Shown here: positions 24,826-41,216 of the stretch, piece by piece
Layout of the letters: each line of letters opens with the position of its first letter
Numbering within the stretch: position 1 is the stretch's first letter
Source: Lysobacterales bacterium
GTDB taxonomy: Bacteria; Pseudomonadota; Gammaproteobacteria; Xanthomonadales; SZUA-5
DNA: 64,000 bases
NCBI GenBank assembly: GCA_022844165.1
Contig: JALHMH010000015.1
Coordinates: 1 to 64,000 of the forward strand
Direction of reading: 5' to 3'
Position numbers and translations under genes: made by a program
Notes under the pieces: generated by a model
Told to the model about the DNA's origin: nothing
The model's database searches: none
What the model saw: only the letters and a program-made list of their open reading frames with translations

Positions 24826-26970
24826 ATGCGTACGTTCCTGGTCTTACTGCTGGCGAGCGTCGGCGTTTCTGCCCAAGATTTTTACGACCCTGCCGTTCTG
24901 CGCCAGGTGTCGCTGACTTTCGCAGAGTCGAATTGGGAGGCGCTGTTGCGCGCCAACTACGCATCGGAAACCCTGTTGCGCGGCGATATGGTGATTGATG
25001 GTGTGAGCTATCCCAATGTCGGCGTGCGCATTCGCGGCAACACCTCTTACACAGCTCTACCGGCGAATTCGCAGAAGTTTTCGTTGAAAGTCGAAACCGA
25101 TTTCATCGATCCAGACCAGGACGTGATGGGCTACAACAATTTGAACTTCAACAATGGCTGGCGCGATCCGACGTTCACGCGCGAACTGGTGTTCAACAAC
25201 TTTGTCGCGCAGTACGTTCCAAATCCGCGCGCCAGTCATGTGGTGGTGTCGATCAACGGCCAAAACTGGGGCGTGTACATCAATGTGCAACAACCGAACA
25301 AGGACCTCTTGCGCGAGTGGTTCTCCGACAACGATGGATTACGCATCCGCTGTGCGAATGTTCCTAACGGCCCCGGTTTGATTTTCAACGGCAACACCGC
25401 TGCTGGCTATCCTGTCTACGACATCCAGGAGTCCGGCGGCTTTGCGGATCCGTACCAACCACTGATTGCGGTCGCGAATGCACTGACCAATGAGCCGGCG
25501 GCGACCTGGCAGAACATCGATAACGTGTTCGCACTCGACCCATCAATCTGGGCCGTTGTGCTGGAGAACCTGCTCACCGACGATGATAGCTATGTCAACA
25601 AGGGCTGCGACTTCATGACCTATCGCGATCCAGTCGATGGCCGCATGCATTTATTCCCGCGCGATGCAAACGAGACTTTCTCGGCGCCGGCATGGACCAT
25701 CGATCGCAACTTCACGTTGACCAATCGACCATTCTTGCGTCGCATCAACACGATCCCAGAGCTCAAACAGCGATTCATGGCGCACTACCGGCATGCGCGA
25801 TCGCGCCTGAACTGGACGACGTTCGAGCCGTTGTTCACGGCGCAACGCAATTTGATCGATGCGGCAGTGCAGGCGGACACGAAGAAACTCTATTCGTACA
25901 CCCTGTTCCAGCAGAACTTTACGCAGACCGTGAATATGCCGTTGCCGGGTCTGGCGGGTGGGAACATTGTCGGTTTGCAGCAGTTTGTGGATAGCCGCGC
26001 GGCGACACTCGCCGGCAGCAGCACGGCGGTGTTACAGGAATTGAACGCACAGGGTCCGACGATCGCCAATGCTCAGGCATCGTTGACCAATCCGGCACCG
26101 GTGCAATCGGTGTTCGTCACGGCTGCTGTGGCAGCCAACGGCAATCCGATCGCCAGTGTCTGGCTCTACGTGCGTCCATCTGCGGCTGTCGGCGTATACA
26201 CGCGCCGTGCGATGCTCGACGACGGCCTGAATGGTGATGGCGCTGCTGGCGATGGCGTTTACGGTGCGCCGCTGCTCACGTTGCCAGCCATCAACGGGCA
26301 GCGCGTCGCGTGGTACGTGGGCGCGGTTGCGCAGAACGCCTTTTCCGCTACGTCGTTCTTGCCGATTCGCACCGAACGCAATCCGAACTTCGTGGAGTAT
26401 TTCGCTGGCGATGCCAATGGTCTGAGAATCACCGAGTGGATGTACGCTGGCGCCGCCGGCGAATTTATCGAACTGACGAACCTCTCCGATGCCGCCATCG
26501 ATACAGCCGGTTACAGCATTGATGACAGCAATGCGACGGCCGGTACCTTTCCCATTGGTGCCTTTGGTGTCGTTGCGCCCGGCGAATCGGTGATCATTAC
26601 GGAAGCCGACGCCAGCGCATTCCGCACTGCCTGGAACCTGCCTGCCGGTGTCAAGATCATCGGTGGGCTTGGAAGCGTAGGCTCGGGAGGAAACAACCTC
26701 GGCCGCAACGATCAGATTCACCTGTACAACGGCAGCAATGCGCTGATCGACCGGCTGTTTTTTGGCGACCAGACCTTCAGCGGCACCATTCGCACTCAGA
26801 ACCGAAGCGGTCAAACACAGTGCGCCAATGTCGGCCAGAACAATGTGACGTTGTGGGTGTTGTCGACGGCTGGCGATGTCTTCGGTTCGGTCACTGCGTC
26901 CGGCGGAGATGTTGGCTCGCCCGGTATTTATCTGGCTTCGTGCGGACTGTTCGCGAATGGATTCGAGTAA
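24826..26970 (+). CDS. secreted CotH-kinase family protein with lamin-tail-like domain and LFANGFE C-terminus
   Basis: Signal peptide; VGVRIRGNTS, KFSLK, LNFNN, DPTFTRE; DGLNGDGAAGDGVY; LRITEWMY...EFIELTN. Confidence 0.85.
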   Translation: MRTFLVLLLASVGVSAQDFYDPAVLRQVSLTFAESNWEALLRANYASETLLRGDMVIDGVSYPNVGVRIRGNTSYTALPANSQKFSLKVETDFIDPDQDVMGYNNLNFNNGWRDPTFTRELVFNNFVAQYVPNPRASHVVVSINGQNWGVYINVQQPNKDLLREWFSDNDGLRIRCANVPNGPGLIFNGNTAAGYPVYDIQESGGFADPYQPLIAVANALTNEPAATWQNIDNVFALDPSIWAVVLENLLTDDDSYVNKGCDFMTYRDPVDGRMHLFPRDANETFSAPAWTIDRNFTLTNRPFLRRINTIPELKQRFMAHYRHARSRLNWTTFEPLFTAQRNLIDAAVQADTKKLYSYTLFQQNFTQTVNMPLPGLAGGNIVGLQQFVDSRAATLAGSSTAVLQELNAQGPTIANAQASLTNPAPVQSVFVTAAVAANGNPIASVWLYVRPSAAVGVYTRRAMLDDGLNGDGAAGDGVYGAPLLTLPAINGQRVAWYVGAVAQNAFSATSFLPIRTERNPNFVEYFAGDANGLRITEWMYAGAAGEFIELTNLSDAAIDTAGYSIDDSNATAGTFPIGAFGVVAPGESVIITEADASAFRTAWNLPAGVKIIGGLGSVGSGGNNLGRNDQIHLYNGSNALIDRLFFGDQTFSGTIRTQNRSGQTQCANVGQNNVTLWVLSTAGDVFGSVTASGGDVGSPGIYLASCGLFANGFE

Positions 26971-27147
26971 GTCGGTCGGCGCACACTGCGGTCCTTCGAT
27001 GCGGAGTATCAACAACACAGCGCAAAGACAGCTCAGCGGCGATGCTTCGCTGGCGTTTCGCAAACGTGTTCTTCATCCCCGTTCATCGGTTTGACGTATT
27101 TGCGGGAGATGATTGTTGAAACTGGATTCTTGAAGAGAGCATCTGCC

Positions 27148-27849
27148 ATGACCAAACTGCTGCTGATTGTTGTCTCCACACTGTTCGCTTCGAGCAGTCT
27201 GGCCAGCGTCGAATTGCCCAGCTTGCCTTACGCCTATGATGCGCTCGAGCCGGTGATCGACGCAAAAACCATGGAACTGCACCACGTGCGACATCACGGC
27301 GCGCAGGTGACAGGTTTGAACGCCGAGTACGAAAAGAACCCTTCTCTTGCCAAGTTGTCGTTAGAGGCTCTACTCGGCAGCATCTCTACGCTGCCACCGG
27401 CGGTTCGAAACAATGCTGGCGGCCACTACAACCACTCGTTGTTCTGGACGGTGATGGCGCCGGAAGGTGAAGGTGGTGAGCCTTCTGAATCGCTGCTGGC
27501 GGCTATCCGTCGCGATTTCGGTTCGATGAACTCGCTTCAGACCGCATTCGCGGCAGCCGCGGCAACGCGTTTCGGCTCGGGATGGGCGTGGTTGATCGTC
27601 GATGAAGACGGCAAGCTCAAAGTCACGTCCACGGCCAATCAGGACAACCCGCTGATGGACGTCGTGGAAGACCGGGGCACGCCGGTGTTAGGCCTGGATG
27701 TTTGGGAGCACGCGTATTACCTCAATTACCAGAACCGCCGCAGCGACTACATCGTCGCGTGGTGGAAGATCGTCAATTGGCATGAGGTCAATCGTCGTTT
27801 CGCATCGGCCGTCGGGCAAAAGGGGCAGGATCACGACGCTGCGCATTGA
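27148..27849 (+). CDS. sod: Fe/Mn superoxide dismutase with N-terminal signal peptide
   Basis: [30 protein letters not shown]. Confidence 0.93.
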
Positions 27850-27863
27850 TCGGCAACAATCGG

Positions 27864-28481
27864 CTATTGACCAGCGGCATCGCAGCGCTGGTTGAATTCG
27901 TCGATGGCGTGCGTGCGGCGGCGTTCGAGTCGCTCCTTTTCGCCGGCTGGCGTGAGCGACCAGACCGTGTGCGCAGCAGTGGCAGCCGTTGCGAGCGTCA
28001 GCACATTGCTTTCAAGCTCGCTGATGCGCCCGTCTCGAGCCGCTTCGGCACTCAGCAGCCGCAATCGGTCGGCGTTCATCGGTCCGGTGTTTTCACTGAG
28101 CATGAGGCTGACCGAAAGCAAATCGGAGTGCGGCGCTAAAGCGCGCCGCGCGTCGATCAGCGCATCCACTTCTGTGCATACGTGACGCATGGAGGTCATA
28201 CGGCAAACGCCTTCGTCATGGCAGCGCAGGACTTCGCCGTACGCTTGTTGGCTTTGCGAATAGGCAAACTCAATGGCATCGAGTTGCTGTGGGGACTGAG
28301 CCGATTCCATGGGAGTCGCCGCGGCGTCGAGCAGTGTGCGAGCGTACAAAAGCCGATCGGTTTCGCCATCAATGACTTTCAGCGCCATCGGCGTATCGTC
28401 GTAACTGCAACTGGTCAGGATGGCGATTGACAACAAAGTTGCCAGAGTCCGCTTCTTGCCGCAGTGGTCGTTGTTTGTCAT
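27864..28481 (-). CDS. hypothetical lipoprotein
   Basis: ILTSC lipobox; 205-aa helical ORF. Confidence 0.6.
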   Translation of the reverse strand: MTNNDHCGKKRTLATLLSIAILTSCSYDDTPMALKVIDGETDRLLYARTLLDAAATPMESAQSPQQLDAIEFAYSQSQQAYGEVLRCHDEGVCRMTSMRHVCTEVDALIDARRALAPHSDLLSVSLMLSENTGPMNADRLRLLSAEAARDGRISELESNVLTLATAATAAHTVWSLTPAGEKERLERRRTHAIDEFNQRCDAAGQ

Positions 28482-28643
28482 AGGCGTCCGCCCTTTTGTG
28501 ATGCCCGATGCTCAATCGACAGTGTGCAACCAGGGAGCGCACGTGGCAAGGGCGACGAGGCCGATTCGTTGGACTTTTCGAAGGAGTTGCTGCGTTGGCC
28601 TGGGCAACCCGAACCGCGCATTCTGCCTCGGTCAATTGGCGGG

Positions 28644-29030
28644 TCAGGCGGTGGCCGAAGACGTCGCGACACCCGCCTTGCGCATCGCAACCAGCCGCAG
28701 CAAACAGTAGATAGAACCGGCGATGAGTCCGGTTGCGCAAATCAGCATCGCCCAGATGCCGCGCTGATTGGGCGTTTGAATTTCGTCTGAGGCTGCGAGG
28801 TAAACAGCAAGAATCGATCCCAATCCAGAGGCTGGCGCAGCAACGAGGAACCAATAGGCGTTGATCCGGCTAAACAGCGAGTGGACCAACTGGCGAGCCC
28901 AGCCCTCAGGCATAGCGACATTCGCCGCGTAAAGAAGATCAAAGCCGCCCAGCGCGTCGAACGTCCATCCGAACCCCAGCGCCAATTGCAGCGCCAGGGA
29001 CGCGTAAAGCAGGAATTTGCGAACACGCAT
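28644..29030 (-). CDS. hypothetical membrane protein
   Basis: Three hydrophobic segments; directly follows the GST gene. Confidence 0.55.
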   Translation of the reverse strand: MRVRKFLLYASLALQLALGFGWTFDALGGFDLLYAANVAMPEGWARQLVHSLFSRINAYWFLVAAPASGLGSILAVYLAASDEIQTPNQRGIWAMLICATGLIAGSIYCLLRLVAMRKAGVATSSATA

Positions 29031-29041
29031 GTCCGACGAGA

Positions 29042-29725
29042 TCACTTGGTTCCGAACAAAATGCGGCGCGTCTCTTCGGTCATTTGTGCGGGCGGTGTGT
29101 AAAAGTCGCCGTAGGCGTAAGCGCGCACCGTGGCTGGCCGCTCGCGGATCGCGTCGAACCACCGCTTTAGATGGGGAAAGTTGTCGAGCGCCATCTGCTG
29201 GCGCTTGTGCGGCACGATCCACGGATAACAGGCCATGTCGGCAATGGTGTAGTCGTTGCCGGCAACAAACGCGTGCTGCGACAGCTGTTTGTCGAGAACA
29301 CCGTAAAGGCGCGCTGTCTCTTTCACATAGCGCTCGATCGCATAGGGAATTTTCTCGGGCGCGTAGACGTTGAAGTGATGGTTTTGTCCGAGCATCGGAC
29401 CCAGCCCGGCCATCTGCCAAAAAAGCCACTGCAAAGTGGTGTGCCGGCCGCGCAAATCGGACGGCAAAAACTGCCCGTGTTTCTCCGCCAGATACAGCAG
29501 GATGGCGCCGGACTCGAACAGCGCAAACGGGTCGCCGCCGCCAACAGGCGCAGCGTCGACGATCGCCGGCATCCGGTTGTTCGGCGCGATCTTTAAAAAC
29601 GAGGGATCGAATTGGGCCCCCTGTGTGATATCCACGCGTTCGATGCGAAACGGCACGGCCGCCTCTTCAAGGAACAGGGTGATTTTGTGCGCGTTAGGTG
29701 TGGGCCAGTAGTGGAGGGTGAGCAT
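29042..29725 (-). CDS. glutathione S-transferase (YfcG-like)
   Basis: WPTPNAHK, PNNRMPAI, FESGAIL, YTIADMA. Confidence 0.92.
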   Translation of the reverse strand: MLTLHYWPTPNAHKITLFLEEAAVPFRIERVDITQGAQFDPSFLKIAPNNRMPAIVDAAPVGGGDPFALFESGAILLYLAEKHGQFLPSDLRGRHTTLQWLFWQMAGLGPMLGQNHHFNVYAPEKIPYAIERYVKETARLYGVLDKQLSQHAFVAGNDYTIADMACYPWIVPHKRQQMALDNFPHLKRWFDAIRERPATVRAYAYGDFYTPPAQMTEETRRILFGTK

Positions 29726-29923
29726 GGTGTGAGGTCGATTTGTGGTGGCGCGATGTTCGAGGGTCGCGCTCGCCGACGCAACAGTTGGTGTTCACAGGTC
29801 GATTTGCCTGAGCGTCATCGCTGCGCATCGATGTGCTCCAAAGGTGCAGTGCAGGTGCACTACCCATGCGCATGACGAGCCGGTCGAAAGTCAGCGCCAA
29901 TCCGAGCTTTCGCACTGCAACCT

Positions 29924-29944
29924 AATTGACAACCATTCGCATTA
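29924..29944 (+). promoter_or_regulatory. Fur box upstream of bfd
   Basis: AATTGACAACCATTCGCATTA resembles the Fur consensus; upstream of bfd-bfr. Confidence 0.7.
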
Positions 29945-29982
29945 CGATTAACTTAGCATCATTGTTCCAGACATCTACGGCC

Positions 29983-30168
29983 ATGTACGTCTGTCTTTGC
30001 AATGGTGTGACCGAAGCGGCGGTGAAACGAGCTGCGGCGGCAGGTATCCGCAGTTTGGAGGAGTTGACAGCAGCCACCGGTTGCGGCGCGGGATGTGGTT
30101 GCTGCCGGGAGATGGCGGAACAGTTGCTCGACGAAGCGCACGGTTACGGTTTTGCGCTCGCCGCGTAG
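29983..30168 (+). CDS. bfd: bacterioferritin-associated ferredoxin
   Basis: MYVCLCNGVT...CGAGCGCC. Confidence 0.92.
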   Translation: MYVCLCNGVTEAAVKRAAAAGIRSLEELTAATGCGAGCGCCREMAEQLLDEAHGYGFALAA

Positions 30169-30250
30169 GCAAAGCGCTTTCATTCGCATTTCGACATTGC
30201 GCGCCGAAAGTCTCTAGGATCGGGCCGTTACCGCAACGGAGTGCCGAACC

Positions 30251-30721
30251 ATGAAAGGCGACAAGACTGTCATCCAGCATCTCAATAAGATCCTCGCCAA
30301 CGAGCTGACGGCGATCAACCAGTATTTTTTGCATTCGCGCATGTACCGCAATTGGGGGTACAAAGTGCTGGCCGATCATGAGTACCACGAGTCGATCGAC
30401 GAAATGAAGCATGCCGATCAGCTGATCGAGCGCATCTTGTTTTTGGACGGTCTGCCGAACCTGCAAAAGCTCAACAAACTGATGATCGGCGAAACGCCGG
30501 TCGACGTCATCCGCTGCGATCTGAAACTCGAAGAGATCGCGATTCCAGACTTGAAGGACGCCATCGCGCATTGCGAGAAGGTTGCCGACTACGGCACTCG
30601 GGAATTACTCGAACACATTCTGGAGAGCGAGGAAGAGCACGTCGACTGGCTGGAGACGCAAATGGCGCTGGTCTCGCAGTTGGGCGAGGCACTGTATTTG
30701 CAAAGCAAAGTCGGCAGCTGA
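30251..30721 (+). CDS. bfr: bacterioferritin
   Basis: ELTAINQYFLH, ESIDEMKHAD, EEEHVDWLE. Confidence 0.97.
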   Translation: MKGDKTVIQHLNKILANELTAINQYFLHSRMYRNWGYKVLADHEYHESIDEMKHADQLIERILFLDGLPNLQKLNKLMIGETPVDVIRCDLKLEEIAIPDLKDAIAHCEKVADYGTRELLEHILESEEEHVDWLETQMALVSQLGEALYLQSKVGS

Positions 30722-30857
30722 TCGATTCATCATCGGCGATCAACCGGGGCTGGTTCAATGTGCCGTGCCCGGTTGGTTGACGCGTGGCGGGCATTTTGAG
30801 CGCTGGTCAATAGACGTTGCGGTCGCTCAAGCGATTGGCGACCAACGCACTTGAACT

Positions 30858-31232
30858 TCACATGGTTTCAAAACTGCCGCCGAAAACATCACTTTCGGCC
30901 TCAAAAGACACGACGCCGATTTGATCGCCGCGCATCTCCGTCATGGTCATCACCGATTCGTTTGCAGGCCGATCCTGAAACAGCACAGCAGCCAGACCCA
31001 ACGCGGCAGCAGCGCCCAAAGCCGGACGCCAAAAACGTGATTGCCTCGATGCATTGTGCGCTTGCGTCACCCAGTTTCTCGCGAGCATCTCTGCGCCATC
31101 CTGCAACGCCATGGCCAACTTCAAGTCCCTCGCGACAGCACGGTCGGAGATCGCCGCCGTCAGCCAACGCTGGCGAGTGGCTTCATCCAGTTGAGGCCAG
31201 CGGGTCAGGTCATCGCGATTGAGTAGTGCCAT
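30858..31232 (-). CDS. putative anti-sigma factor
   Basis: Overlaps the end of the ECF sigma gene; single TM segment. Confidence 0.55.
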   Translation of the reverse strand: MALLNRDDLTRWPQLDEATRQRWLTAAISDRAVARDLKLAMALQDGAEMLARNWVTQAHNASRQSRFWRPALGAAAALGLAAVLFQDRPANESVMTMTEMRGDQIGVVSFEAESDVFGGSFETM

Positions 31233-31746
31233 TGTTGACTCCTTCGCGCAGCGCATCCAGGCTGCGATAAACCACGTTTCTTGCCTTTGCCTCGGTCCAT
31301 CGCAGGGCTTGACCAATTTCTGCGGTAGTGAATCCCTGCAAATACAAACCCAGCGCCTGCGCGACTTCGGGTTGCGTCGACACCAGTTCTTGCATCAGCA
31401 CATGCAGATGGGCGCGTTCTTCATGCCCGATCCCATCGAGCGGCTGAACTTCCAGCGCTTCCAATCCAACATGTTCCCGATCTCCACCACGCACCTGACG
31501 CTTGCGGGCTGCATCGATCGCCACACTGACGACCACGCTACGAATAAAGGACGCAGGCTTGTCCCAGTTTCTCTCACGGCTCAATGTTTGCCAAAGACGA
31601 ATACGGATTTCCTGCTCTACCTCTTCCAGGTCTGCCTCAGAAAGGCGACTATCCACAGACTTCAGCGTGGTTCGCACATACCGGCTCCAACGCGCCAAGA
31701 GCGCTTGAAACTCCGCCTCGAATGGTACCTTGCGCTTGAAAAACAT
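31210..31746 (-). CDS. ECF RNA polymerase sigma factor
   Basis: DLEEVEQE...AIDAARK region 2; GFTTAEIG...KARNVVYR region 4. Confidence 0.85.
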   Translation of the reverse strand: MFFKRKVPFEAEFQALLARWSRYVRTTLKSVDSRLSEADLEEVEQEIRIRLWQTLSRERNWDKPASFIRSVVVSVAIDAARKRQVRGGDREHVGLEALEVQPLDGIGHEERAHLHVLMQELVSTQPEVAQALGLYLQGFTTAEIGQALRWTEAKARNVVYRSLDALREGVNNGTTQSR

Positions 31747-32099
31747 CAGCTTGCGCGCACATGCCCAGCGGCGGCGAGCTCATCAATGTAGCGCTGCCAG
31801 TAGTCGCCCTGGTGCTGGCCTAACTCGTACAAGTAGCTGAATGAATAGATACCCGTCTTGTGGCCATCGTCGAATTCGAGCAGTACAGCGTAGTGTCCGA
31901 CCGGATGGATCGCGGCGATATTGACGTTCTCCTTGCCCAATTGCAGAACTCGCTGATCGGGTCCGTGTCCTTTGACCTCCGCCGATGGGCTGAAAACGCG
32001 CAACAGCTCGCAAGGAAGGCGAAACACCTCACCTGTATCGAACGCGACTTCGAGGACACGGGAACGTTGATGGAGCCGAATGTCGGTTGGCTGGCTCAT
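31746..32099 (-). CDS. DUF971 family protein
   Basis: ELLRVFSPSAEVKGHG, VGHYAV, FDDGHKTGIY. Confidence 0.9.
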   Translation of the reverse strand: MSQPTDIRLHQRSRVLEVAFDTGEVFRLPCELLRVFSPSAEVKGHGPDQRVLQLGKENVNIAAIHPVGHYAVLLEFDDGHKTGIYSFSYLYELGQHQGDYWQRYIDELAAAGHVRAS

Positions 32100-33175
32100 G
32101 TGCCGCCCTTGGCATGTACTGGCATTTCGCCGTCAAGCTTCTCGCCGCGATTCCATGCCAATAACAGTGTGTATCCGACCGCGAGAAGCACAGGGCCCAG
32201 GAATACCCCGAGGAAGCCGAAGGCGAGCACACCGCCGATGACGCCCAGAAACACCAACAGGAACGGCATCTGCGAGCCGCGGCTGATCAGATAAGGTTTG
32301 ATGATGTTGTCGATCCCACTAATCACAAAGAATCCCCAGACGGCCATGAATACCGCGGCGGCGTAACGGTCTTGCGACCCAAGCCAGACAACCACGGGTA
32401 CCCAGACGAGCGGAGGCCCCATTGGAATCAGCGACATGAAAAACGTCAGGAGCCCCAAAAACAGTGCGCCAGGTACGCCGACGATCGAAAAGCCCACGCC
32501 CGCCAGCAGGCCTTGCGCCAGCGCTGTGCCGAGAATGCCGTACACCACGCCCTGGATTGTGCCACCCGCGACGTCGATGAACTGTCGCGCGCGCGGACCA
32601 ATCAACCGCGTCAGTGCTTGACGCAATCCGATCGCAAGTTCGTCGCCGCGCCGGAACACAAAAAACGCAATGAACACCGACAAACCCAGCTCGACCGTGC
32701 CGCGCCCGAGCACCGCGCCGCCCTTGATCACGCCATCGCGCACTGGATTCAATGCCGCTTTAGCGGCCTCAAGCAGGCCGGTCTGTGATTCAAGTTCCTG
32801 CCAATAATCGGCGATGGCGACGCCGACCACAGGCAACTGAGCAACCCACGCCGGCGGCGGTGGCAATCCGCGTGCAACCCAGTCTTTCAGCGCCTGCGCC
32901 CAGGCCGAGACGTTCTCGGCCAACGTCAGGCCCACGACGACAAAAGGCAAAACCAGAACGCACGCAACTGCCAGTGTCATGACGACAGCGGTTAACGTGC
33001 GCCTTCCTTGCAGTTTGCTCACCAGCCATTGGTACGCAGGCCAGCTTGCGTAACACAAGATCACTGCCCACATCAGTGCCGACAAGAAGGGCTTGAGTAC
33101 CAGGAAACAGCCCACGGCCAGGAAACTGAGCGCAGCAGCGGCAAACAAGGCTTCAATCAGTCGTTGACGATCCAT
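32096..33175 (-). CDS. AI-2E family transporter
   Basis: Multi-TM; IDNIIKPYLIS, GVIGGVLAFGFLGVFLGP. Confidence 0.92.
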   Translation of the reverse strand: MDRQRLIEALFAAAALSFLAVGCFLVLKPFLSALMWAVILCYASWPAYQWLVSKLQGRRTLTAVVMTLAVACVLVLPFVVVGLTLAENVSAWAQALKDWVARGLPPPPAWVAQLPVVGVAIADYWQELESQTGLLEAAKAALNPVRDGVIKGGAVLGRGTVELGLSVFIAFFVFRRGDELAIGLRQALTRLIGPRARQFIDVAGGTIQGVVYGILGTALAQGLLAGVGFSIVGVPGALFLGLLTFFMSLIPMGPPLVWVPVVVWLGSQDRYAAAVFMAVWGFFVISGIDNIIKPYLISRGSQMPFLLVFLGVIGGVLAFGFLGVFLGPVLLAVGYTLLLAWNRGEKLDGEMPVHAKGGT

Positions 33176-33205
33176 GGGTGTCGTATGCGCAAACCAGAGC
33201 CGAGT

Positions 33206-33494
33206 CTAGCGAGGTTTAGCCTCAGACCGGCGAGCTTTGTTGGCTCACGTCAAGCACGTTAGAGTCCTTGACGGCTCGACAAATGAGTCAAGTTTTCGAC
33301 GAAGCGGATTTGGCTTTTGAAGCCCCCTTGAGTCAAGCGGGGTGAGGATCGGCGCTGACACGCCGCAAGGCGTGTACGCGCCGAACGACCGGCGGCTGTG
33401 CCGTCGGGCCGGAAATGCGGAGCGCGGGGTTGTGGCGAGTACGCTGTCGGACGAAGCCAGCAATGCTCGTCGGTCTGAGGCGAAGCCTCGTTAG
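33206..33494. mobile_element. MITE family C, full copy with long imperfect TIRs
   Basis: CTAGCGAGGTTTAGCCTCAGACCGGCGAGC... is inverted to ...GCTCGTCGGTCTGAGGCGAAGCCTCGTTAG; interior shared with 24469-24654. Confidence 0.65.
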
Positions 33495-33564
33495 TGGGTC
33501 GTTTGCGCAACCATGCCCTGAGGTTGCTCTTGTGTTCACGCAGACAGGCCACACCTTCTGACCC

Positions 33565-34380
33565 ATGAACATCAGACCCCTGCCCGACGCGGCATTCACG
33601 CGTCAAGCACTGGCGCGAGATCGCCGTCGCCTTGAGACCGCCTTTTTTTGGGGGGCGATCAGCATCGCGCTGTTGTGGCTGGTGATGCTTGCCGAGTGGG
33701 CTGCTGGAACACGATTCTCGTTTCTCGGACTGGCCCCGCGCGAACTGACGGGGCTTGTCGGTTTGATCGGCGCTCCGTTGGTGCACGGCTCACTTGAGCA
33801 CCTGATCGCCAATAGCATTCCAACTTTCGTCCTCATCAGCCTCGGTATGTATGCCGTGCCGCTGGCGACTGCGCGCGCAGTGCCGTTGATCTGGATCGTC
33901 AGCGGCGCTTTGGTCTGGCTGTTTGCCCGCGACTCGGTGCATATCGGCGCTTCCGGTGTGACCCACGGTCTGATGAGTTTTCTGTTTGTGCTCGGTGCAG
34001 TCCGGCGCGATCGGATCACCATCGCCGTCGCGCTGATCGTGTTTTTTCTTTATGGCAGCATGGCCTACGGCTTCTTACCCACGAAAGCTGGAATCAGTTT
34101 CGAATATCACGGCGCCGGTCTGGTCGGTGGCGTCATCGCCGCGCTGCTTTGGCGAAATCTCGATCCGCTGCCAGAACAAAAACGCTATGACTGGGAAGAC
34201 GAACCTGAAAACGACGAGGAGTGGAACGACGATCCGCTCGAACCCCCGTCGCCGCAACATGTGCCGGTGCTTTGGGACGGGCCGCGTCGTCCCACGCGCG
34301 GTGCCTTGCTGCAATTTCCGTCGCGACGCCGAGTCGAGTTTGCCGATGACGAAGATGGTCGAATCGAGCCGGAGCGCTGA
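33565..34380 (+). CDS. rhomboid family intramembrane serine protease
   Basis: HLIAN, HIGASG, ISFEYHGAG. Confidence 0.9.
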   Translation: MNIRPLPDAAFTRQALARDRRRLETAFFWGAISIALLWLVMLAEWAAGTRFSFLGLAPRELTGLVGLIGAPLVHGSLEHLIANSIPTFVLISLGMYAVPLATARAVPLIWIVSGALVWLFARDSVHIGASGVTHGLMSFLFVLGAVRRDRITIAVALIVFFLYGSMAYGFLPTKAGISFEYHGAGLVGGVIAALLWRNLDPLPEQKRYDWEDEPENDEEWNDDPLEPPSPQHVPVLWDGPRRPTRGALLQFPSRRRVEFADDEDGRIEPER

Positions 34381-34424
34381 TTGAGGCTCAAACCCCATTG
34401 TTGGCGACAGCCAGGTTCCCTCCA

Positions 34425-34770
34425 CCCGGGCCAGGCGATAAGCCGGGTTCTGTCGCGAACGATCATTCCTCTGGAGCTGGCGTCGCCGCCAGTCTCAAGC
34501 AGCTTACCCGGGGAAGACGCGGGCCGCGCCATACTCCCCCTATTTAGCCTTGCTGCCGATGGGGTTTGCCGTGCCGTCCGTGTTGCCACGTCCGCGGTGC
34601 GCTCTTACCGCACCGTTTCACCCTTGCCCGCGCTCCTTTCGAAGCCGTTGGCGGTTTGTTTTCTGTTGCACTTTCCGTGAGCTCTCGCTCCCCAGGCGTT
34701 ACCTGGCATCGTGCCCTGTGCAGCCCGGACTTTCCTCGGTGTTACCACCGCGATCGTTTGCCCGGCGCCG
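34425..34770 (-). ncRNA. rnpB: RNase P RNA (class A)
   Basis: GAGGAAAGTCCGGG, AAGTGCAACAGAA, GACAGAACCCGGCTTA; ends approximate. Confidence 0.95.
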
Positions 34771-34961
34771 GATGGAGGGATCCGGAGTCTACTCTCTTTG
34801 GCAACCGTGGTTTGATCGCCTGGGCTTGTGGCCACGGGATCGGCCATAAGTCGGTTCATTGGCTTGCAGCATTTTGACGTCCTCCCTTTTTGCCAACTGC
34901 CTCGTCGCGCACAGTATCGGGGTTACGTAGACTCGGCGCCCAACCTCCAAGGGCGTTATCA

Positions 34962-35816
34962 ATGTCCCATCGAACGATGATCGCGGTCTGGGTCGCGTGC
35001 AGTTCCTTCTGCTCGTCGGAAGCAGGCGCACAATCGCTGAGCAGCCCCGAGAGCCTGCAATTCGATAGCGCCAATCAGCGCTATCTCATCAGCAATCGCG
35101 GTGCCGGGAACATCCTGGCGCGCAGCACAGAAGGCACACTGACGGTGTTCACCGATGACCCTTCGAGCCCCGCAGGCATGGAGATCATGCAAGGCGCGGT
35201 GTACGTTGCCGATGGCGCCCGTGTGCGCGGATATCGACTGAGCGATGCCGTGCGTGTGCTCGATTTTCCGATCCCCGGGGCAGGTTTCCTCAATGGTCTG
35301 GCGTCGAATGGCAACGGTATCTTGTGGGTGACCGATTTCAGCCAACGCCGCTTGCACGCGCTGGATGTTTCGAACTTGAGCGCGCCGGTTTTGAACACGC
35401 TGCTGACCGACACCGTCTTCACGCCCAATGGCGTGGTTTGGGATGGCGCAGAAAATCGTCTGTTGTTGGTCAGCTGGGGCGCCAACGCGCGAATCGCCGA
35501 ATACCGTTTCGCCGATCAGATGCTCAACACAATCGTGACCACAACGCTCGGCAACTTCGATGGCATCGTGCTCGGCTGCGACAACGCTGTCTACGTTTCG
35601 AGCTGGTCCCCCAGCGGCACGATACGCAGGCTGGCATCGCCTTTGACCGTTGCCTCGCCAGCCCTGGACTTTGTCATGGGTCTGAGCAACCCTGCCGATA
35701 TTGCCTTCAGCCCGGAGCGTAGCGAGATCGCAAGCCCGAACGCGGGCAACAACTCCGTCAGTTTTCATCCCATCGTGTGCCCAACCGAGCCACTGTTTGC
35801 GAACGGTTTCGAGTAA
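34962..35816 (+). CDS. secreted SMP-30/gluconolactonase-like beta-propeller with LFANGFE C-terminus
   Basis: Signal peptide; SSPES, FLNGLA, PNGV, FDGI, PADI blade motifs. Confidence 0.8.
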   Translation: MSHRTMIAVWVACSSFCSSEAGAQSLSSPESLQFDSANQRYLISNRGAGNILARSTEGTLTVFTDDPSSPAGMEIMQGAVYVADGARVRGYRLSDAVRVLDFPIPGAGFLNGLASNGNGILWVTDFSQRRLHALDVSNLSAPVLNTLLTDTVFTPNGVVWDGAENRLLLVSWGANARIAEYRFADQMLNTIVTTTLGNFDGIVLGCDNAVYVSSWSPSGTIRRLASPLTVASPALDFVMGLSNPADIAFSPERSEIASPNAGNNSVSFHPIVCPTEPLFANGFE

Positions 35817-35862
35817 CTTCCGGCCTCGCGAGGCATACCTCTGAATCATGCCCGTCAACGGG

Positions 35863-36132
35863 TCAGGGTTCATCTCGATAGTTGACGAACAACGTAGGAA
35901 GAGAGGTTGACACAGAGGGAGGCACCACAACGACGCCGAATACGTGTCCGAGAACCGAACCGCTGAAATCGCAGGAAGAAGTCGATCGAAACGCTGGAAC
36001 GACGCAGAAGCACGACCGAGGAAGTAACGCGGGACCCGGATCTCGATCATCGAGACGGGGCGGTGTTGACCCAAGTCCAAGTAGTAGGATCAAAAACTAG
36101 AAGCAGATCAGGTGTTGACAGGAGGCGTCCAT
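35863..36132 (-). pseudogene. possible decayed small secreted gene with an in-frame TAG
   Basis: GAGGAC RBS, then MDASCQHLICF*FLILLLGLGS... in one frame. Confidence 0.3.
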
Positions 36133-36351
36133 ACGTGTCCTCGTTATGTTGTTCACCGACTAGGCGCACCTAGAGATTTTCGATGGATGAACTGCAATGA
36201 GTCCCGAATTAAGCGCTTTTTACAAACAGCTTCGGATATACCGTAAAATCAAATTCGCAGCCGTTATCGCGACGGATCGCCCTGTCGAGAAAAAACATCA
36301 TGGACCAAAGCGCAGCCTGCCCGCCTTGATTCCGTAACATCTTTGGCGCAT

Positions 36352-36828
36352 TTAGTCTATTAGCTGCACATCGGCCAAGGAAAGCGCTGAAATAATACGC
36401 TCGGCTTTAGTGCGACAATTGGAGTTGCACGTCTTCGAGAGCGAACTCAATGCCCTTATTATCCGAAGCTTGACTCCGCGCAGCTGTTCCACTTCCGATT
36501 CTGAATCTGTGGTTAAAAGCAACGCTCCCGCGTCGCTTACCCATGCATCAAAGTCACTCTCGTGCCTTTCGAACCAGACAAGCATCATCTCCGGCCGGCA
36601 TTCTAGCGCTCGACCAAGGTGATCTGATACCTCAAAGCCAAGCGCACCATCTCTAATCAACCAAAGACTACCAATCGTATGAATGACTGGAATCGCGTCA
36701 CTTTCTCTTTCGCCGCAAAGTAGTTTTTCTGCATTGGTGTCCAGCCACAATAAACTCTCCGATGCGAAATCGCGCGACCAAGCGGTTGATTGAAGAAAGA
36801 AACTAACGGCAATCAAAAGCCTACTCAC
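36352..36828 (-). CDS. putative periplasmic immunity protein
   Basis: Signal peptide, AT-rich, GTGA overlap with the toxin stop codon. Confidence 0.6.
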   Translation of the reverse strand: MSRLLIAVSFFLQSTAWSRDFASESLLWLDTNAEKLLCGERESDAIPVIHTIGSLWLIRDGALGFEVSDHLGRALECRPEMMLVWFERHESDFDAWVSDAGALLLTTDSESEVEQLRGVKLRIIRALSSLSKTCNSNCRTKAERIISALSLADVQLID

Positions 36829-37820
36829 TCAAACCCTCCATCGAAACGCTCTGATATAATAATCCTTGCAGTCATTTGCTGCCGAATGGAATTATATAAG
36901 GCTTTGGTTGCTGCACGACTGTTATAAACTCTGTTGGAGCGATATTCGCTTCCAGGCATTAAGCAACCAAGTGTATGCGCCGGTGTATTCCCAGAATGAA
37001 TGAGGATTTTCGACCTGCCGGGCACTCGTTGCAATTCAAATGCCGACGGATACGCGCGGCTTGAGTACGGCATGAGCTCATATGATCCGGGCATTATTCT
37101 TAGGTCACTACCTTCGATTGTAGAACTTGGTCCAGCGGGCTCCAAAACAAATGCGCTGTTGAAGTTTCCGTAAAGATCTTCCCAATATATTTCGCTGATC
37201 GTAGCTTCGTTCGTTGTGAGAAATCTAAATAATTTTATCTCAAGTTCGGTTGGCAAGAAATCTTCGACTGCGTCGGAGCCATACGGATCCGGAGGAGGAG
37301 CACCTGGCCCATTCGCCGGTCGATGCCATTCATCATTAAACGCCCTAGAAAACGCCGCCGTGACTGCCCCATTGGCGAACTTCCCACCGCTCGCCGCGCT
37401 GACCGATCCGCCTACGAGAGCGGCGGCGATGACTCGGCTGGGGCTGAATCTGCGGTTCGCCGCGTCCAGCGTGTCGATTTTTCCTGAGAACGCTTGTGTC
37501 ACGCCTGCGGACAGGAAGCCATGGCCAAATTTTCCGCCCTGCAAAGTCTGCATCACGCCACCCGCAATGCCATGCGCAGCCACTTTGGCCGCGAACAAGC
37601 CGGGACTCAGGTCCGTGCGCTATAGCGCGACCCACAAGAGCGACGTGTCCCGTTGGTCGCGCCATGCGACGCTGTTGTCTGGAATGCTGCGGTGAAGTCG
37701 CCCACTGGATGGGCTGCCTTCCTGCTGTGGGGGGCGCGATAACTTCGACAGTCGATGGTGAATCTGGCGGGCTGACCCGCAACGGCTTTGACATAGTTTC
37801 TCCGATCAAAGCCGCTCTGA
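36825..37820 (-). pseudogene. orphan Rhs-type C-terminal toxin module (DUF5675/LD-transpeptidase-like tip), frameshifted upstream of 37598
   Basis: GGKFGHGFLSAG...GGKFANGAVTAAFSRAFNDE pre-toxin linker; tip RIMPGSY...VPGRSKILIHSGN...TLGC; no Rhs core present. Confidence 0.7.
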
Positions 37821-37928
37821 AATGAGAGATAACTCAAAGTATAACTGGCAGGTCGCATTGATTTGAAGATGCACGCACCCTGGACCGACCAGGGCGCGCG
37901 GTGTCTTTTGGCCTGGATGACCGTTCGA

Positions 37929-40900
37929 TCATTCAAATCCGTTCGCGAACAGTCCATCGTCTGCGCCCGCCGCGATCACGCACCATTGATTAACGGTGCC
38001 GCTGTCGCCGGTGGCATCGTCAATGACGGTCAGACGGAAGTCGCCGGCGGGCAGGCCATTGAATCGTGCCAGATCGTCTTGCGGACGCAATTCGCCGTTG
38101 ATGGCTGGTGCGGTGGTGCGACAGGCGACGATTGCGCTGTCATCGTCGTTGAAGGTGCCGTTGACATCATCGCCGGTGCAATTGTTTTGTTTGGTGTACA
38201 GCCGTGCTTCTACGCCGCTGGCGACGTGCGTGAGACGGAATGCCAACTGTCCAGCGCTGGTGTGTGCGGTATTAATGCTGACATCCAGATCGCCGATCAG
38301 CGAGCCAGGTACGGTCAGTGTCTGCGTGGCACCGCTGGCGTTGCCATCGGGAATCGGCAGGGCGCTCTGCGAACAAATGGCGGCGGCCGTTGTGAAGCTG
38401 CGCATGGTGCTGGCGGCAGACTCGCCGCAGGCGTTGATTGCGGTCACGCGCCAAAAGCGGGTGACGGCCGGCGCCAGTTGTGGCAAGCGGAACTGCGTCG
38501 CGATGGTCTCGAAGCTCTGAGTGTTCGGTCCGGCTGCAAAAGCACTGCTGTCGGATACGTCCACGCGATAACGCAACGCGCCCGTCGCGGCCTGCCAGGA
38601 CAGCTGTGGCGCGCGTTTGACGCCTGTCTGACTATCGCCCGGGCTGCCCAGCAATGGCGCAGCTGAGGTGCTGCTCGATACCCATAGTGGCAGCGCCAGT
38701 TCGTCGTCCGTACCGCCGCTCACGTCAGCGCGAACAGTGGTTGGATACGCACCGGGGACCAGTCCTGCCTGCGGTGTCAATGTCAGCGTGCTGCTGCCGG
38801 TGTTGATCGAGGCGGGCGCAAAGGCCACGCCGAGGCCGCTCGGTGCGCCGTCCAAACTGAGCGCAGCGTTGCCGGCAAAACCGGCGAAACTGCCGAAACT
38901 CAGGTTGGTCTGCGTCGGCGTTGCGCCGCAGACATTGATCGTTGTTGCCGGGGAAGTGATCGCCACACCCGCCTCGCGACAGTTGGTGCACACCAATGCG
39001 TAATCTTGCGCGGGTGTTCCGGGCGTGCCGTTGCCCGCGAGTGCATCGGCGTTGATCGCCGCGGCCGTCAATGTGATCGTTGTGGCGCCGCCGGCGGGCG
39101 CTGCCAGATAGACATTTTCAATGTTGTTCAGCCGATCGAAGCTGCCGCCGGTTACCGACGTGCCGTTGTTGAAGACGTTGCCAAAGTACGTCTGGCCACC
39201 GTTCACCACGGTCAGGTCCAGATCGTTCACGAGGGCCGGATTGGCCTGCACCGCGCCAGGCGCATCGGTCCACACCAGCGAGATCTTCATGGGTCTGCCG
39301 GGATCGACCAACCCGACCGTAAAGCTTCGCGTTTGTCCGGTGGCTGTGAGTACATCGTCCTGATCGCGATACACGCCGCGCAAGCTCGGATCGAAGGTGT
39401 ACTTCAGGTCGACCTGACCCCAGCCCTCGTCGTTATTCGGTATCGGTCGCGAGCCGTCGTTGGCGTTTGGTGTGCCGGTGCCGGCCAGATCGTAGGCACC
39501 ATTGATCAGTACCGCTTTGGTCATGGCTGGAGACGGAACGGCACCGGCGAATTTTTTGGCCCACCATTCGTGCACCAGAGCTGCCGCGCCGGAGACCATG
39601 GGCGTGGACATGCTGGTGCCGGAGCACAGCGAGAACAGGCCGTTGGTGCCGGCGATTGCCGTTCCGCATTGGCCACCTTCAGCGCGACGTGTTGAACCGG
39701 TATTGCCGCCAACGCCAGTGATCGTGGGGAGGGTCCGACCATCTTCTGCGGGTCCTCGCGACGACGAGGAACTGATGTTGCTGGAGCTGGCGGGGTTGGT
39801 GCGCCCGACTAACGAATTGGCTACGGAGATGATGTTTTTCGCCACGTGGGGGCCGGTGAGGGTCGATACGCCGGGTCCAGCGTTTCCAGCTGAAAACAAG
39901 ATCGAAAAAGCTTGGTTACCGGTGGTGTTGAAATCGCCGTCGCGAACCAGAGTGTCGTATTCACGCTCGCTGGCAAGGTAACGCACTTGCGGCGAACTGC
40001 CCGAGTTGTTCCAGGAATTATTTGATCCGCGCGAACCCGCCGCCAATGGAATGCGCGTGCGCTCGGGGTTGGGCATGCCACCGCAACCCACCGATCGAAC
40101 CGCAAAGAGCCCCGCCGCCGGAGCGACGCCTTGACCATATCGGTAACCGTTGGCATCGGTTTCCGCCGCGGGCCCGGAGAAGTCTCCAGTACCGCGACCC
40201 GCCAGCGATCCCGAGACATGCGAGCCATGCCCACCGCTGTCGTCGCCCGGCAACGGGGCCGTGGGGCAGCCTGGGCCGTCGTGACCGCCCACCCGCGCCA
40301 CCCCCAAATCCGGATGCTCCCAATCGGTACCAGAATCGACCACCGCCCAGGTGATGCCTGCGCCGCTCAAGCCCAGATCCCACGGCACGCCGATGGTCTT
40401 CAGGAAATCAAGATATCCCGGTGCGTTGCCGATTCCGCTGGGCGAGAAGTTGCGCGCGAAGACCTGGTTGGCCATTTCATCGTCGGGCTGCGCCTCCGAT
40501 TCGCGACCAACCCAAACCAACTCCGGGAGCTGTGAAACAGCCGCTAGAGCGCCGGCGTCGATGCGACCTGACGCGCGATAGAAGCGGGCGTCCGGCTGGG
40601 CTGGGTAAAACTGTTTGAGTGACACGCCGCGCGCGGCTAGCGTGCCCTGCAGCGTTGTCGGTGAGCCAGAGTTGAACAACAGAAAGCTTGCGTCTTCAAT
40701 CGGCCCATTGCTGCTGCGCAAGTTCGGATCGATTCGCAGGTCGCCGCCGAAGGCTGCTGCGCCGCGAATCATCGGTTGACCGTCCAGCGCAGCGATGGAT
40801 GCCCCGTCGGCCCAGACGAGATAGGCGTTGTGCGGATAGTACTGAAGCGGCAATACCTCGGCAGATTCCAGGGCCTGCGTCCAGGCGGCGCGCGCCGGGC

Positions 40901-41216
40901 CATCGAATTGCACCAGAAACAACCCTTGTGCGGCGGATTTGTCAGCGAGGCGCGGTGCGGTCATGGGCACTTGAACAGAACCAACTCGCACATCGTCGCC
41001 AGCGATCTCGACAATGATCCCGCGACTACGAAGTTTGGCGATCGCGGCTGGTTCCAGCCGCGCCCAGGAAAAGCCTCCGTGGTCTTCGACTCGTTCGACG
41101 TACTCGCCCAGCGTGGCGATCGTTTCGGGTGAGGCATGGACACGCACGGCGATCGGGTCGGCAAGAGCGGCTTGCGCAAGAATGGCGCCGAGCGAAATGA
41201 CGGTGAGACGATTCAT
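37929..41216 (-). CDS. S8 subtilisin-like serine protease with P-domain and LFANGFE C-terminus
   Basis: VVDSG, HGSHVSG, FSAGN, GTSMSTP; fibronectin-like and proprotein-convertase P domains. Confidence 0.92.
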   Translation of the reverse strand: MNRLTVISLGAILAQAALADPIAVRVHASPETIATLGEYVERVEDHGGFSWARLEPAAIAKLRSRGIIVEIAGDDVRVGSVQVPMTAPRLADKSAAQGLFLVQFDGPARAAWTQALESAEVLPLQYYPHNAYLVWADGASIAALDGQPMIRGAAAFGGDLRIDPNLRSSNGPIEDASFLLFNSGSPTTLQGTLAARGVSLKQFYPAQPDARFYRASGRIDAGALAAVSQLPELVWVGRESEAQPDDEMANQVFARNFSPSGIGNAPGYLDFLKTIGVPWDLGLSGAGITWAVVDSGTDWEHPDLGVARVGGHDGPGCPTAPLPGDDSGGHGSHVSGSLAGRGTGDFSGPAAETDANGYRYGQGVAPAAGLFAVRSVGCGGMPNPERTRIPLAAGSRGSNNSWNNSGSSPQVRYLASEREYDTLVRDGDFNTTGNQAFSILFSAGNAGPGVSTLTGPHVAKNIISVANSLVGRTNPASSSNISSSSSRGPAEDGRTLPTITGVGGNTGSTRRAEGGQCGTAIAGTNGLFSLCSGTSMSTPMVSGAAALVHEWWAKKFAGAVPSPAMTKAVLINGAYDLAGTGTPNANDGSRPIPNNDEGWGQVDLKYTFDPSLRGVYRDQDDVLTATGQTRSFTVGLVDPGRPMKISLVWTDAPGAVQANPALVNDLDLTVVNGGQTYFGNVFNNGTSVTGGSFDRLNNIENVYLAAPAGGATTITLTAAAINADALAGNGTPGTPAQDYALVCTNCREAGVAITSPATTINVCGATPTQTNLSFGSFAGFAGNAALSLDGAPSGLGVAFAPASINTGSSTLTLTPQAGLVPGAYPTTVRADVSGGTDDELALPLWVSSSTSAAPLLGSPGDSQTGVKRAPQLSWQAATGALRYRVDVSDSSAFAAGPNTQSFETIATQFRLPQLAPAVTRFWRVTAINACGESAASTMRSFTTAAAICSQSALPIPDGNASGATQTLTVPGSLIGDLDVSINTAHTSAGQLAFRLTHVASGVEARLYTKQNNCTGDDVNGTFNDDDSAIVACRTTAPAINGELRPQDDLARFNGLPAGDFRLTVIDDATGDSGTVNQWCVIAAGADDGLFANGFE

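Follow-up and report, generated by a model that had tools for sequence, protein, structure and literature searches.

The window, i.e., the whole stretch of 64,000 nt of DNA that was analyzed, contains three open reading frames (ORFs) that end in the same seven residues (Table 1). A search of this 64-kb window with a degenerate pattern for L-F-A-N-G-F-E followed by a stop codon returned exactly three matches, whereas 100 dinucleotide-preserving shuffles of the window returned none. The first protein matches the Pfam models CotH (1.8e-23) and LTD (9.9e-14), and its residues 462-481 match the NCBIfam model choice_anch_X (NF041940) at 27.2 bits, above the cut-off of 25. The second gives weak matches alone, to SGL (E 0.0047) and ScyE_fam (E 0.001), both under the cut-off, and the third matches Peptidase_S8 in Pfam (3.7e-27). 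The open frame of the second begins upstream of the ATG in Table 1, at TTG 34890. The original prediction, which placed LFANGFE-stop at these positions on three proteins with no common domain, was borne out, as was its claim that all three carry N-terminal signal peptides, their N-termini being signal-peptide-like by a heuristic. The tag codons differ among the three ORFs as it had reported, which points to conservation at the level of the peptide. Two of its further observations hold within the window and do not extend to the genome: a Cys lies 2, 5, or 10 residues upstream of the tag in the window proteins, but a Cys within 12 residues of the tag occurs in only 16 of the genome's 58 tagged ORFs, and the exact C-terminal position of the three window tags is not strictly kept elsewhere.

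Table 1. Open reading frames of the window that end in the LFANGFE tail
Feature	ORF coordinates	Strand	C-terminal end	Tail codons	Match of tail plus stop
CotH kinase-like + lamin-tail-domain exoprotein, 714 aa	24826..26970	+	...ASCGLFANGFE-stop	26947-26967	26947-26970
Small exported beta-propeller-like protein, 284 aa from ATG 34962	34962..35816	+	...IVCPTEPLFANGFE-stop	35793-35813	35793-35816
Large S8 subtilase, 1095 aa from ATG 41216	37929..41216	-	...AAGADDGLFANGFE-stop	37932-37952	37929-37952

The three window tails are a local sample of a nine-residue end-tag that is conserved genome-wide. When ORF ends were searched for [ILVMFA][FL]x[DNS]GFE, 58 tagged ORFs were found in the whole genome, in which GFE is the commonest C-terminal tripeptide (65 occurrences, the runner-up being RRR with 40), and reversed-pattern controls gave 0-1 matches per genome. 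Together with the shuffled windows, these counts exclude chance. Non-terminal copies of the motif comprise 8 at 1-4 residues from the end, 2 right behind the signal peptide, and about 9 internal ones, and between 1 and 7 extra residues after the tail are tolerated, 7 being the longest extension seen. An enrichment of signal peptides among tagged proteins, the check proposed with the original prediction, was found by the heuristic (37/49 tagged vs. 692/3469 untagged ORFs, odds ratio 12). The Pfam families among the carriers include FG-GAP, Sortilin/BNR, beta-helix, M12B, S8, endonuclease I, esterase, DUF5122, LVIVD, Calx-beta, and CotH, and 24 of 55 carriers have no Pfam match at E ≤ 1e-5. The carriers are unrelated Sec-exported proteins, mostly large degradative or adhesive ones. 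A reader candidate was also sought in the gene neighborhoods of 49 tagged genes, where no non-regulatory neighbor recurs; the only recurrent neighbors are pairs of an ECF sigma factor and a Ser/Thr kinase (13 of 44 kinase paralogues lie at most three genes from a tagged gene), which appear regulatory and were set aside as pointers to a reader.

LFANGFE is the form taken locally by a short linear motif of nine residues, D-x-[LVIM]-[FL]-x-[DNS]-G-F-E, which lies at the C-terminus or a few residues from it in about 60 Sec-exported proteins per genome of this gammaproteobacterial order. The tail recurs throughout the order, in agreement with the similar termini that the original prediction mentioned for related Lysobacterales, and cultured carriers include Tahibacter sp. 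UC22_41 and Pseudofulvimonas gallinarii DSM 21944. Within the class it is enriched in this order only, 149 other families of that class having 0-2 pattern matches each. The GFE tail is absent from the catalogues and literature searched: no NCBIfam model touches GFE tails even at E ≤ 10, no Pfam model covers them, and literature searches by motif letters, sorting signals, and type II secretion (T2SS) found nothing. A study of a T2SS subtilase (10.1101/2024.05.07.592856) is silent on such tails in its available portion. Putative sorting motifs of 11 positions are already catalogued, as in sort_motif_YLP (NF050076), which is a different motif and whose best match in this genome, at an unrelated place, scores 13.2 bits vs. 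a 15-bit cut-off.

One formal likeness is to the tripartite sorting signals, i.e., LPXTG/sortase, PEP-CTERM/exosortase, GlyGly-CTERM/rhombosortase, and MYXO-CTERM/myxosortase, which likewise combine a short C-terminal signature with dozens of unrelated Sec-exported proteins and a lineage-restricted distribution. In the 58 tagged ORFs the signature lies near the C-terminus, across diverse Pfam families and with signal-peptide enrichment, as it does in these systems. The GFE tail also occurs on a "choice-of-anchor" family, choice_anch_X, and a longer form of it on a choice_anch_J/M36-like carrier; of six CotH orthologues scanned with NF041940, five match at 33-35 bits and one (P0009) scores 24.7, just below the cut-off of 25. 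However, since the stop codon follows GFE directly, the tail has neither a transmembrane helix nor a basic cluster behind it, and unlike the tripartite signals it tolerates short extensions and, rarely, an N-terminal placement.

The CotH protein provides the most detailed view of the tail. Among its orthologues (n=88), G712 and F713 are kept in 88/88 and F709 in 83/88, and the preceding linker is variable. An AF2 model of the window protein has a mean pLDDT of 87.6, with residues 708-714 below 50 and devoid of secondary structure; in this sole modelled protein, the tail was thus not seen as an integral strand of its domain. The tail is conserved yet predicted to be unstructured, which is linear-motif-like. 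In Phycisphaerae-type CotH orthologues, which belong to another phylum and are 58-63% identical to the window protein, the model dockerin_GC (NF041540) matches at 708-761 (1.1e-13) in the very place of the tail; in position, the tail and this curated GC-type docking domain are interchangeable among orthologues. The likeness is one of position (708-761 vs. 708-714), as the GC-type dockerin is a 55-67-residue repeat module that ends in GC and does not resemble the tail in sequence; nor does the window CotH protein match the NF041540 model.

This replacement argues for a post-secretion docking or retention tag, which would hold exoenzymes and adhesins in a dockerin-like manner through non-covalent binding to a candidate surface receptor or to the outer-membrane surface. 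The conserved and unstructured character of the tail agrees with such a role, and the persistence of the motif right after the signal peptide in two proteins and ahead of C-terminal extensions is more in keeping with a ligand than with a site of cleavage; genomes of family f8, described below, have tails without detectable GspC. However, a dock that stands alone would be very short at nine residues, and the search for a receptor gave no candidate, the neighborhoods of the 49 tagged genes again offering no repeated non-regulatory gene, and the strong co-occurrence of the tail with GspC would then merely reflect the export route. We regard docking as a rather unlikely function of the tail.

The tail could instead be passive and have no dedicated reader: a cap shielding the C-terminus from tail-specific proteases of the periplasm, an aid to folding, or what remains of the first strand of a jelly-roll module since lost. 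Such a reading is consistent with the lack of any proven machinery. A longer form of the tail, of 14-20 residues (...FADGFEWGSTRFW, ...FNDGFEAGNTTAWSATVP), was found in Thermoanaerobaculia, and we take it to resemble the strands with which CBM-type jelly rolls begin; one internal copy of the motif stands ahead of a Reelin-B-like jelly roll. The near-invariance of the Gly and both Phe residues across unrelated folds and in 88 orthologues with a variable linker is nevertheless stronger than a passive cap needs, the dockerin replacement points to an interaction function, and it is implausible that about 60 proteins were independently truncated at one and the same residue. A tail without a reader is improbable. 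The longer form also accounts for apparent matches in Acidobacteria, where an exact tail was ruled out in that the matches end in TGG with no stop.

Candidate readers were searched for across 199 genomes of the order, in which a genome was called tail-bearing with at least two tail matches (114 genomes, leaving 85 others), and the families C13, C25, and T2SSC were profiled. A C13 asparaginyl endopeptidase, an idea that came from the [DNS]-G site, was rejected as the reader: C13 was found in 54/114 tail-bearing genomes vs. 36/85 others (tails only 60, neither 49), and by family it is present in 0/7 genomes of f3 and 2/27 of f10 though these are tail-rich, and in 27/27 of f12 though this family is tail-poor. 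C25 (PF01364) is enriched, occurring in 72/114 tail-bearing genomes vs. 10/85 others, with 75 genomes having neither; a PorU-like C25 peptidase was nonetheless rejected as an obligate reader, as 42 of the 114 tail-bearing genomes are without a match, including G136 (21 tails, 100% complete) and G037 (27 tails). Both peptidase families track the tails worse than T2SSC does, and a dedicated membrane enzyme for the tail was not identified among the three families profiled.

These distributions weigh on a sortase-like cleavage or transpeptidation signal, in which cleavage at [DNS]-G by a C25 or asparaginyl-endopeptidase-type enzyme would be coupled to attachment of the protein to a glycan or lipid of the surface. 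The invariant small polar residue and Gly of the tail presumably resemble transpeptidase sites, and this genome encodes two large PorU-like C25 proteins, one adjoining surface-glycan genes, which together with the enrichment of C25 would suit such an enzyme. However, beyond the tail-bearing genomes without C25 and the lack of association with C13, the substrate has no membrane anchor to hold it, and copies at the mature N-terminus would make no sense for C-terminal transpeptidation. Cleavage of this kind is very improbable. Type IX secretion (T9SS), with its C-terminal domain (CTD) and PorU, offers a related comparison, as it too uses a helix-free C-terminal signal on many exoproteins, and PorU-like C25 genes are present here and enriched among carriers. 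A T9SS CTD folds into a domain of about 70-100 residues, whereas the GFE tail consists of 7-9 unstructured residues and occurs in 42 of the 114 tail-bearing genomes with no C25 match.

The preferred reading, that the tail serves as a tag recognized once the protein has been exported by Sec, is likely to be correct, and the third family profiled suggests what might read it. T2SSC was found in 106/114 tail-bearing genomes vs. 21/85 others (tails only 8, neither 64; related genomes in this set are not independent), so the proposal to profile tag-rich genomes for co-occurring families yielded a candidate, with exceptions in both directions. This genome (G000) has a single T2SSC match (3.1e-19), a 305-aa GspC that adjoins a secretin. 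Sequence models for its PDZ domain (residues about 196-305) reach 1e-4 to 5e-4, below cut-offs, and with AF2 and Foldseek the best matches are 2i4s, 5hj1, and 2i6v (EpsC/PulC PDZ), with the HR part matching 3oss_C; the protein is thus modelled as an HR domain plus a PDZ fold.

The association can be followed within families. In family f2, G136 is the sole tail-bearing genome of 28 and also the sole one with a full-length T2SSC. In family f12, the 7 genomes with at least two tails are exactly the 7 with T2SSC; since the same 7 alone also hold a C25 peptidase, one retained ancestral clade could explain this match. Six f8 genomes have tails without T2SSC, among them G132 with 11 pattern matches, of which 6 ORFs were read and carry real ...GFE-stop tails, and G029 with 6 pattern matches. 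A search of G132 and G029 for GspC with an HMM built from 21 GspC sequences gave DegP-like PDZ matches only, and T2SSL had no match in G029 and G193. Conversely, GspC is present in 28/28 genomes of family f7, yet 17/28 have 0-1 tails, and E. coli and Caulobacter, two of the named control genomes, likewise have matches to the T2SSC model. GspC is not sufficient for tails.

Selection of cargo by the PDZ domain of GspC has precedents in EpsC-VesB of Vibrio cholerae and OutC-PelI of Dickeya, and the present genome resembles them in encoding a GspC with HR and (predicted) PDZ domains, whose presence tracks the tail across the order. According to PMC12369372, just part of the T2SS cargo (VesB) depends on the PDZ domain of EpsC, and the signal is transferable to a different protein; the known PDZ-dependent T2SS signals are described there as folded Ig/Fn3 features, and the field is said to hold that no linear T2SS signal exists. 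The GFE tail differs in being linear rather than a folded feature and in its exceptions in both directions, and its binding to PDZ is only putative. Against PDZ binding, canonical PDZ ligands require a free C-terminus and a hydrophobic last residue, whereas the last residue here is Glu, extensions of 1-7 residues are frequent, and 2 copies lie at a mature N-terminus.

In the proposed mechanism, exported proteins would carry an unstructured C-terminal tail past the Sec step, and the GspC PDZ domain would then recruit the tail-bearing cargo into type II secretion. The tail is probably an address label, and the address may be one branch of the type II secretion machinery. That it recruits cargo to the GspC PDZ domain, as the co-occurrence hints, we consider a tentative possibility; the fuller version, in which the tail is a linear, transplantable T2SS signal and its reader is the PDZ domain in a dedicated GspC-GspD gate standing beside an Xps-type gate on one platform, is somewhat doubtful. 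The original prediction of a post-Sec tag for outer-membrane export or surface anchoring agrees with the unrelated exported carriers, the peptide-level conservation, and the position of the tail at a dock site; its export option fits GspC, an outer-membrane export component, by way of co-occurrence, which makes GspC a candidate for the reader it postulated.

The discovery of new envelope machinery has repeatedly started from C-terminal sorting tags, and the GFE tail is unusually short, has no membrane anchor, and marks about 60 exoproteins per genome in most families of an environmentally common order. If the GspC-PDZ link is true, a nine-residue peptide becomes a direct test of how T2SS cargo is chosen, and biotechnology would gain a simple secretion tag in the tail; a linear signal read by PDZ would be the first for a system thought to recognize only folded features. 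If the link is false, the tail remains a predictor of the secreted or surface proteome and points to another reader.

Two minor observations concern family f7, in which no CotH orthologue was found in 5 genomes. Its tail-poor lineage has a shorter hairpin in the GspC PDZ domain. Since the 13 short-loop GspCs form one clade, the short hairpin represents a single evolutionary event, and it was downgraded as independent support.

Three open reading frames (ORFs) in the window end in LFANGFE followed by a stop codon; a degenerate DNA pattern for this ending matched three times in the window and never in 100 shuffles. Searches of the whole proteins against NCBIfam and Pfam found no common domain among the three carriers, bearing out the original observation that one heptapeptide closes otherwise unrelated proteins. 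Five of the seven tag codon positions vary among the three copies, and conservation therefore acts on the peptide rather than on the DNA, as had been proposed. Between two of the tagged genes lies a gene for a DUF5675 protein (257 aa, 4.3e-19), which lacks a signal-peptide-like N-terminus and resembles a polymorphic toxin's C-terminal portion; its end, ...ERFDGGFE, is probably a chance resemblance to the tail.

Coordinates of the features discussed, in the window or on other contigs (C) of the same genome
Feature	Location	Strand	Remarks
CotH + lamin-tail-domain protein	window 24826-26970	+	ends LFANGFE; tag 26947-26970
Small beta-propeller-like protein	window 34962-35816	+	sub-threshold domain matches only; tag 35793-35816
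DUF5675 protein	window 36825-37598	-	
S8 subtilase	window 37929-41216	-	ends LFANGFE; tag 37929-37952
LPMO10-FN3-GH18 chitinolytic fusion protein	C41:24767-27226	-	complete LLFANGFE in linker, directly after LPMO domain
Large C25 protein	C10:104884-109887	+	one of the two adjoins surface-sugar genes
Large C25 protein	C11:11026-15078	-	
Orphan gspC(PDZ)-gspD pair	C16:22858-25919		
Complete Xps-like cluster	C3:210375-221733		gspE-M, GspC-type gene, own secretin
Putative sigma factor/kinase pairs	C3, C8, C9, C32, C45, C47, C55; e.g. C8:27155-30406, C32:8418-11794, C47:26223-29279		names from sequence reading

The window covers positions 1-64000 of contig C15. In the whole genome (4.68 Mb, 59 contigs), 47 stop-to-stop ORFs (all six frames, minimum 80 aa) end in [ILVMF]F..GF[ED] and 58 in [ILVMFA][FL]x[DNS]GFE, and GFE is the most frequent C-terminal tripeptide among ORFs of at least 150 aa (65 ORFs, followed by RRR with 40). 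The consensus of the 58 is D(30)-x-[L31 V17 I6 M4]-[F47 L11]-[A34 R9]-[N37 D13 S8]-G58-F58-E58; a cysteine near the tag, initially taken for a shared feature, occurs in 16 of them and is not general. The expected enrichment of signal peptides was found: using a home-made heuristic on a crude gene set, 37/49 tagged proteins were positive vs. 692/3469 others (odds ratio 12, Fisher p 1.7e-16); among the 12 tagged negatives, several have a visible signal peptide behind a wrongly chosen start. A looser heuristic gave 45/50 vs. 998/2471. Among the 55 carriers outside the window, Pfam families include FG-GAP, Sortilin/BNR, right-handed beta-helix/NosD, reprolysin-type M12B, S8, endonuclease I, BD-FAE esterase, DUF5122, LVIVD, Calx-beta and several Ig-like domains, while 24 have no Pfam match at E <= 1e-5. 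Unrelated exported proteins thus share a conserved peptide at or near the C-terminus that is predicted to be unstructured; it probably serves as a recognition tag that is read once Sec has exported the protein.

The strict motif also occurs in 19 copies away from the terminus. Eight lie 1-4 residues before the end (GFES, GFEG, GFESP, GFEGP, GFEGN, GFEIP, GFEEPR, GFESLR), two immediately follow a signal peptide, and some nine sit inside the protein, among them two upstream of a roughly 215-aa jelly-roll-like extension and another, probably there by chance, within an RHS protein. The arrangement of the LPMO10-FN3-GH18 protein would fit a fusion between a tail-bearing LPMO gene and a downstream chitinase gene.

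The C-termini of the best 120 homologues of the window CotH protein (58-100% identity) were inspected, and 88 carry the motif at most seven residues from the end: 23 stop exactly at ...GFE, 40 run on for 1-7 residues past GFE (frequently as GFE-x-P), and the remaining variants have GFD or GFDP ends or Y or H replacing the first F. A free carboxylate on the tail Glu cannot be essential. A sortase-like cleavage site is an unlikely reading of the tail. Most other homologues, several with Phycisphaerae in their source names, are longer and end in double DxNGDG-type repeats closing in GC; among six of these scanned, the NCBIfam 'GC-type dockerin' model NF041540 matched two above cut-off (P0073 and P0007, residues 708-761/763) and a third, P0016, under it. 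Tail and docking domain are interchangeable in position, and the tail itself might be a surface dock acting after secretion, although we consider this rather doubtful. In an alignment of the 88 sequences, C706, G712 and F713 are identical throughout, F709 is kept in 83, and 701-705 and 707 vary; a passive cap or vestige is an unlikely reading of such a tail. AlphaFold2 with this alignment (mean pLDDT 87.6, pTM 0.83) placed residues 708-714 below pLDDT 50 and without secondary structure, which, together with the conservation, suggests a free peptide in this one modelled protein rather than the integral domain strand that would have spoken against a tag.

A DNA pattern, F-x-[DN]-G-F-E-T-R-R, which also admits TGG and misses L and S variants, was present in 36/39 relatives and 125/199 genomes of the order (each at least 90% complete), with 0-2 matches per genome for the reversed pattern. 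All genomes of families f1 (13/13), f3 (7/7), f4 (27/27), f5 (2/2), f6 (2/2), f9 (10/10) and f10 (27/27) were positive, with up to 76 matches each; pattern-poor families were f2 (1/28), f7 (13/28, 0-5 each), f8 (14/27, mostly 1-4) and f12 (8/27). No genome among 149 other families of the class, one genome each, had more than two matches. Among the named genomes listed as matching one high-GC codon version were Dokdonella, Tahibacter, Aquimonas, Chiayiivirga, Rudaea, Pseudolysobacter, Ahniella/Ahniellaceae, Pseudofulvimonas gallinarii, Pseudomarimonas and many Lysobacterales MAGs. Thermoanaerobaculia matches were ruled out as the same terminal tail, since the pattern there ends in TGG, not a stop; they belong to a longer tail of 14-20 residues, FxDGFE-[WA]-G-x-[ST]-x-x-W... 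(loci L202, L203, L204, L205, L206; genomes G210, G212, G213), ending ...LIFADGFEWGSTRFW-stop, ...LFADGFEWDGSLLFWSEVVP-stop or ...IFNDGFEAGNTTAWSATVP-stop, with one copy immediately behind a signal peptide. These long forms matched no NCBIfam model, and no NCBIfam or Pfam model covers the short tail (whole proteins; last 30 residues of 7 carriers, E <= 10); ultrashort NCBIfam models do exist (NF050076, 11 positions). A full-text literature search by motif letters, sorting-signal and T2SS topics found nothing on the tail.

Candidate readers were profiled over the 199 genomes (at least two tail matches with the family/tails without it/family without tails/neither). Peptidase family C13 showed no association (54/60/36/49) and was rejected. 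The PorU-like C25 family was enriched (72/42/10/75), but the tail-bearing genomes in which it was not found include G136 (21 tails, 100% complete) and G037 (27 tails). The window genome encodes two very large exported proteins (1667 and 1350 aa) with a C-terminal PorU/gingipain-type C25 domain. T2SSC, the model for the HR domain of the type II secretion component GspC, gave 106/8/21/64, counts in which kin are not independent and the seven T2SSC-bearing f12 genomes are also the sole C25 holders of that family. These seven of 27 are exactly the f12 genomes with at least two tails, and in f2 G136 is both the only tail-bearing genome and the only one with full-length T2SSC, two others having partial matches and no tails.

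The best-supported candidate for a specific reader, proposed tentatively and less likely than not to be right, would be the PDZ domain of GspC in a second C-D gate of the type II system. Ligands of PDZ domains include peptides at a terminus and beta-finger turns; the D/N-G of the tail would form such a turn. The window genome has two GspC/secretin gate modules: the 305-aa GspC on C16, immediately upstream of its secretin, comprises a TM helix, HR domain and C-terminal PDZ fold (best PDB matches EpsC PDZ, 2i4s and 2i6v, and PulC PDZ, 5hj1; HR part 3oss_C), and this pair is separate from the C3 cluster, whose GspC-type gene has a helical C-terminus and no Pfam match. PMC11981180 describes a similar helix replacing the PDZ fold in XpsC of Xanthomonas. 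The gspC-D-E-F genes are contiguous in G136 and G028.

Eight tail-bearing genomes lack T2SSC: G030, G149 (90% complete) and six of f8. As G030 has a strong T2SSL match and 260 contigs, its gspC may sit in an assembly gap. A 21-sequence GspC profile found only DegP-like PDZ matches in the f8 genomes G132, G029, G094 and G193; T2SSL was just above the family cut-off in G094 (1.1e-7), below it in G132, and without a match in G029 or G193, and six G132 ORFs inspected have real ...GFE-stop ends. All 28 f7 genomes have GspC, yet just 0-5 tails each; in f7 short-loop PDZ domains the hairpin before strand 232-240 is shorter by 4-6 residues, a single event because the 13 short-loop sequences all fall into one clade. 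Elsewhere, GspC-PDZ systems often occur without tails, and among the named control genomes the T2SSC model also matches those of E. coli and Caulobacter.

Judged by sequence, some tagged exoprotein genes adjoin a pair of genes, one for a putative ECF-type sigma factor of about 190 aa, the other for a large putative Ser/Thr kinase of about 800-980 aa; the window genome has 44 kinase paralogues, 13 of them within three genes of a tagged gene.
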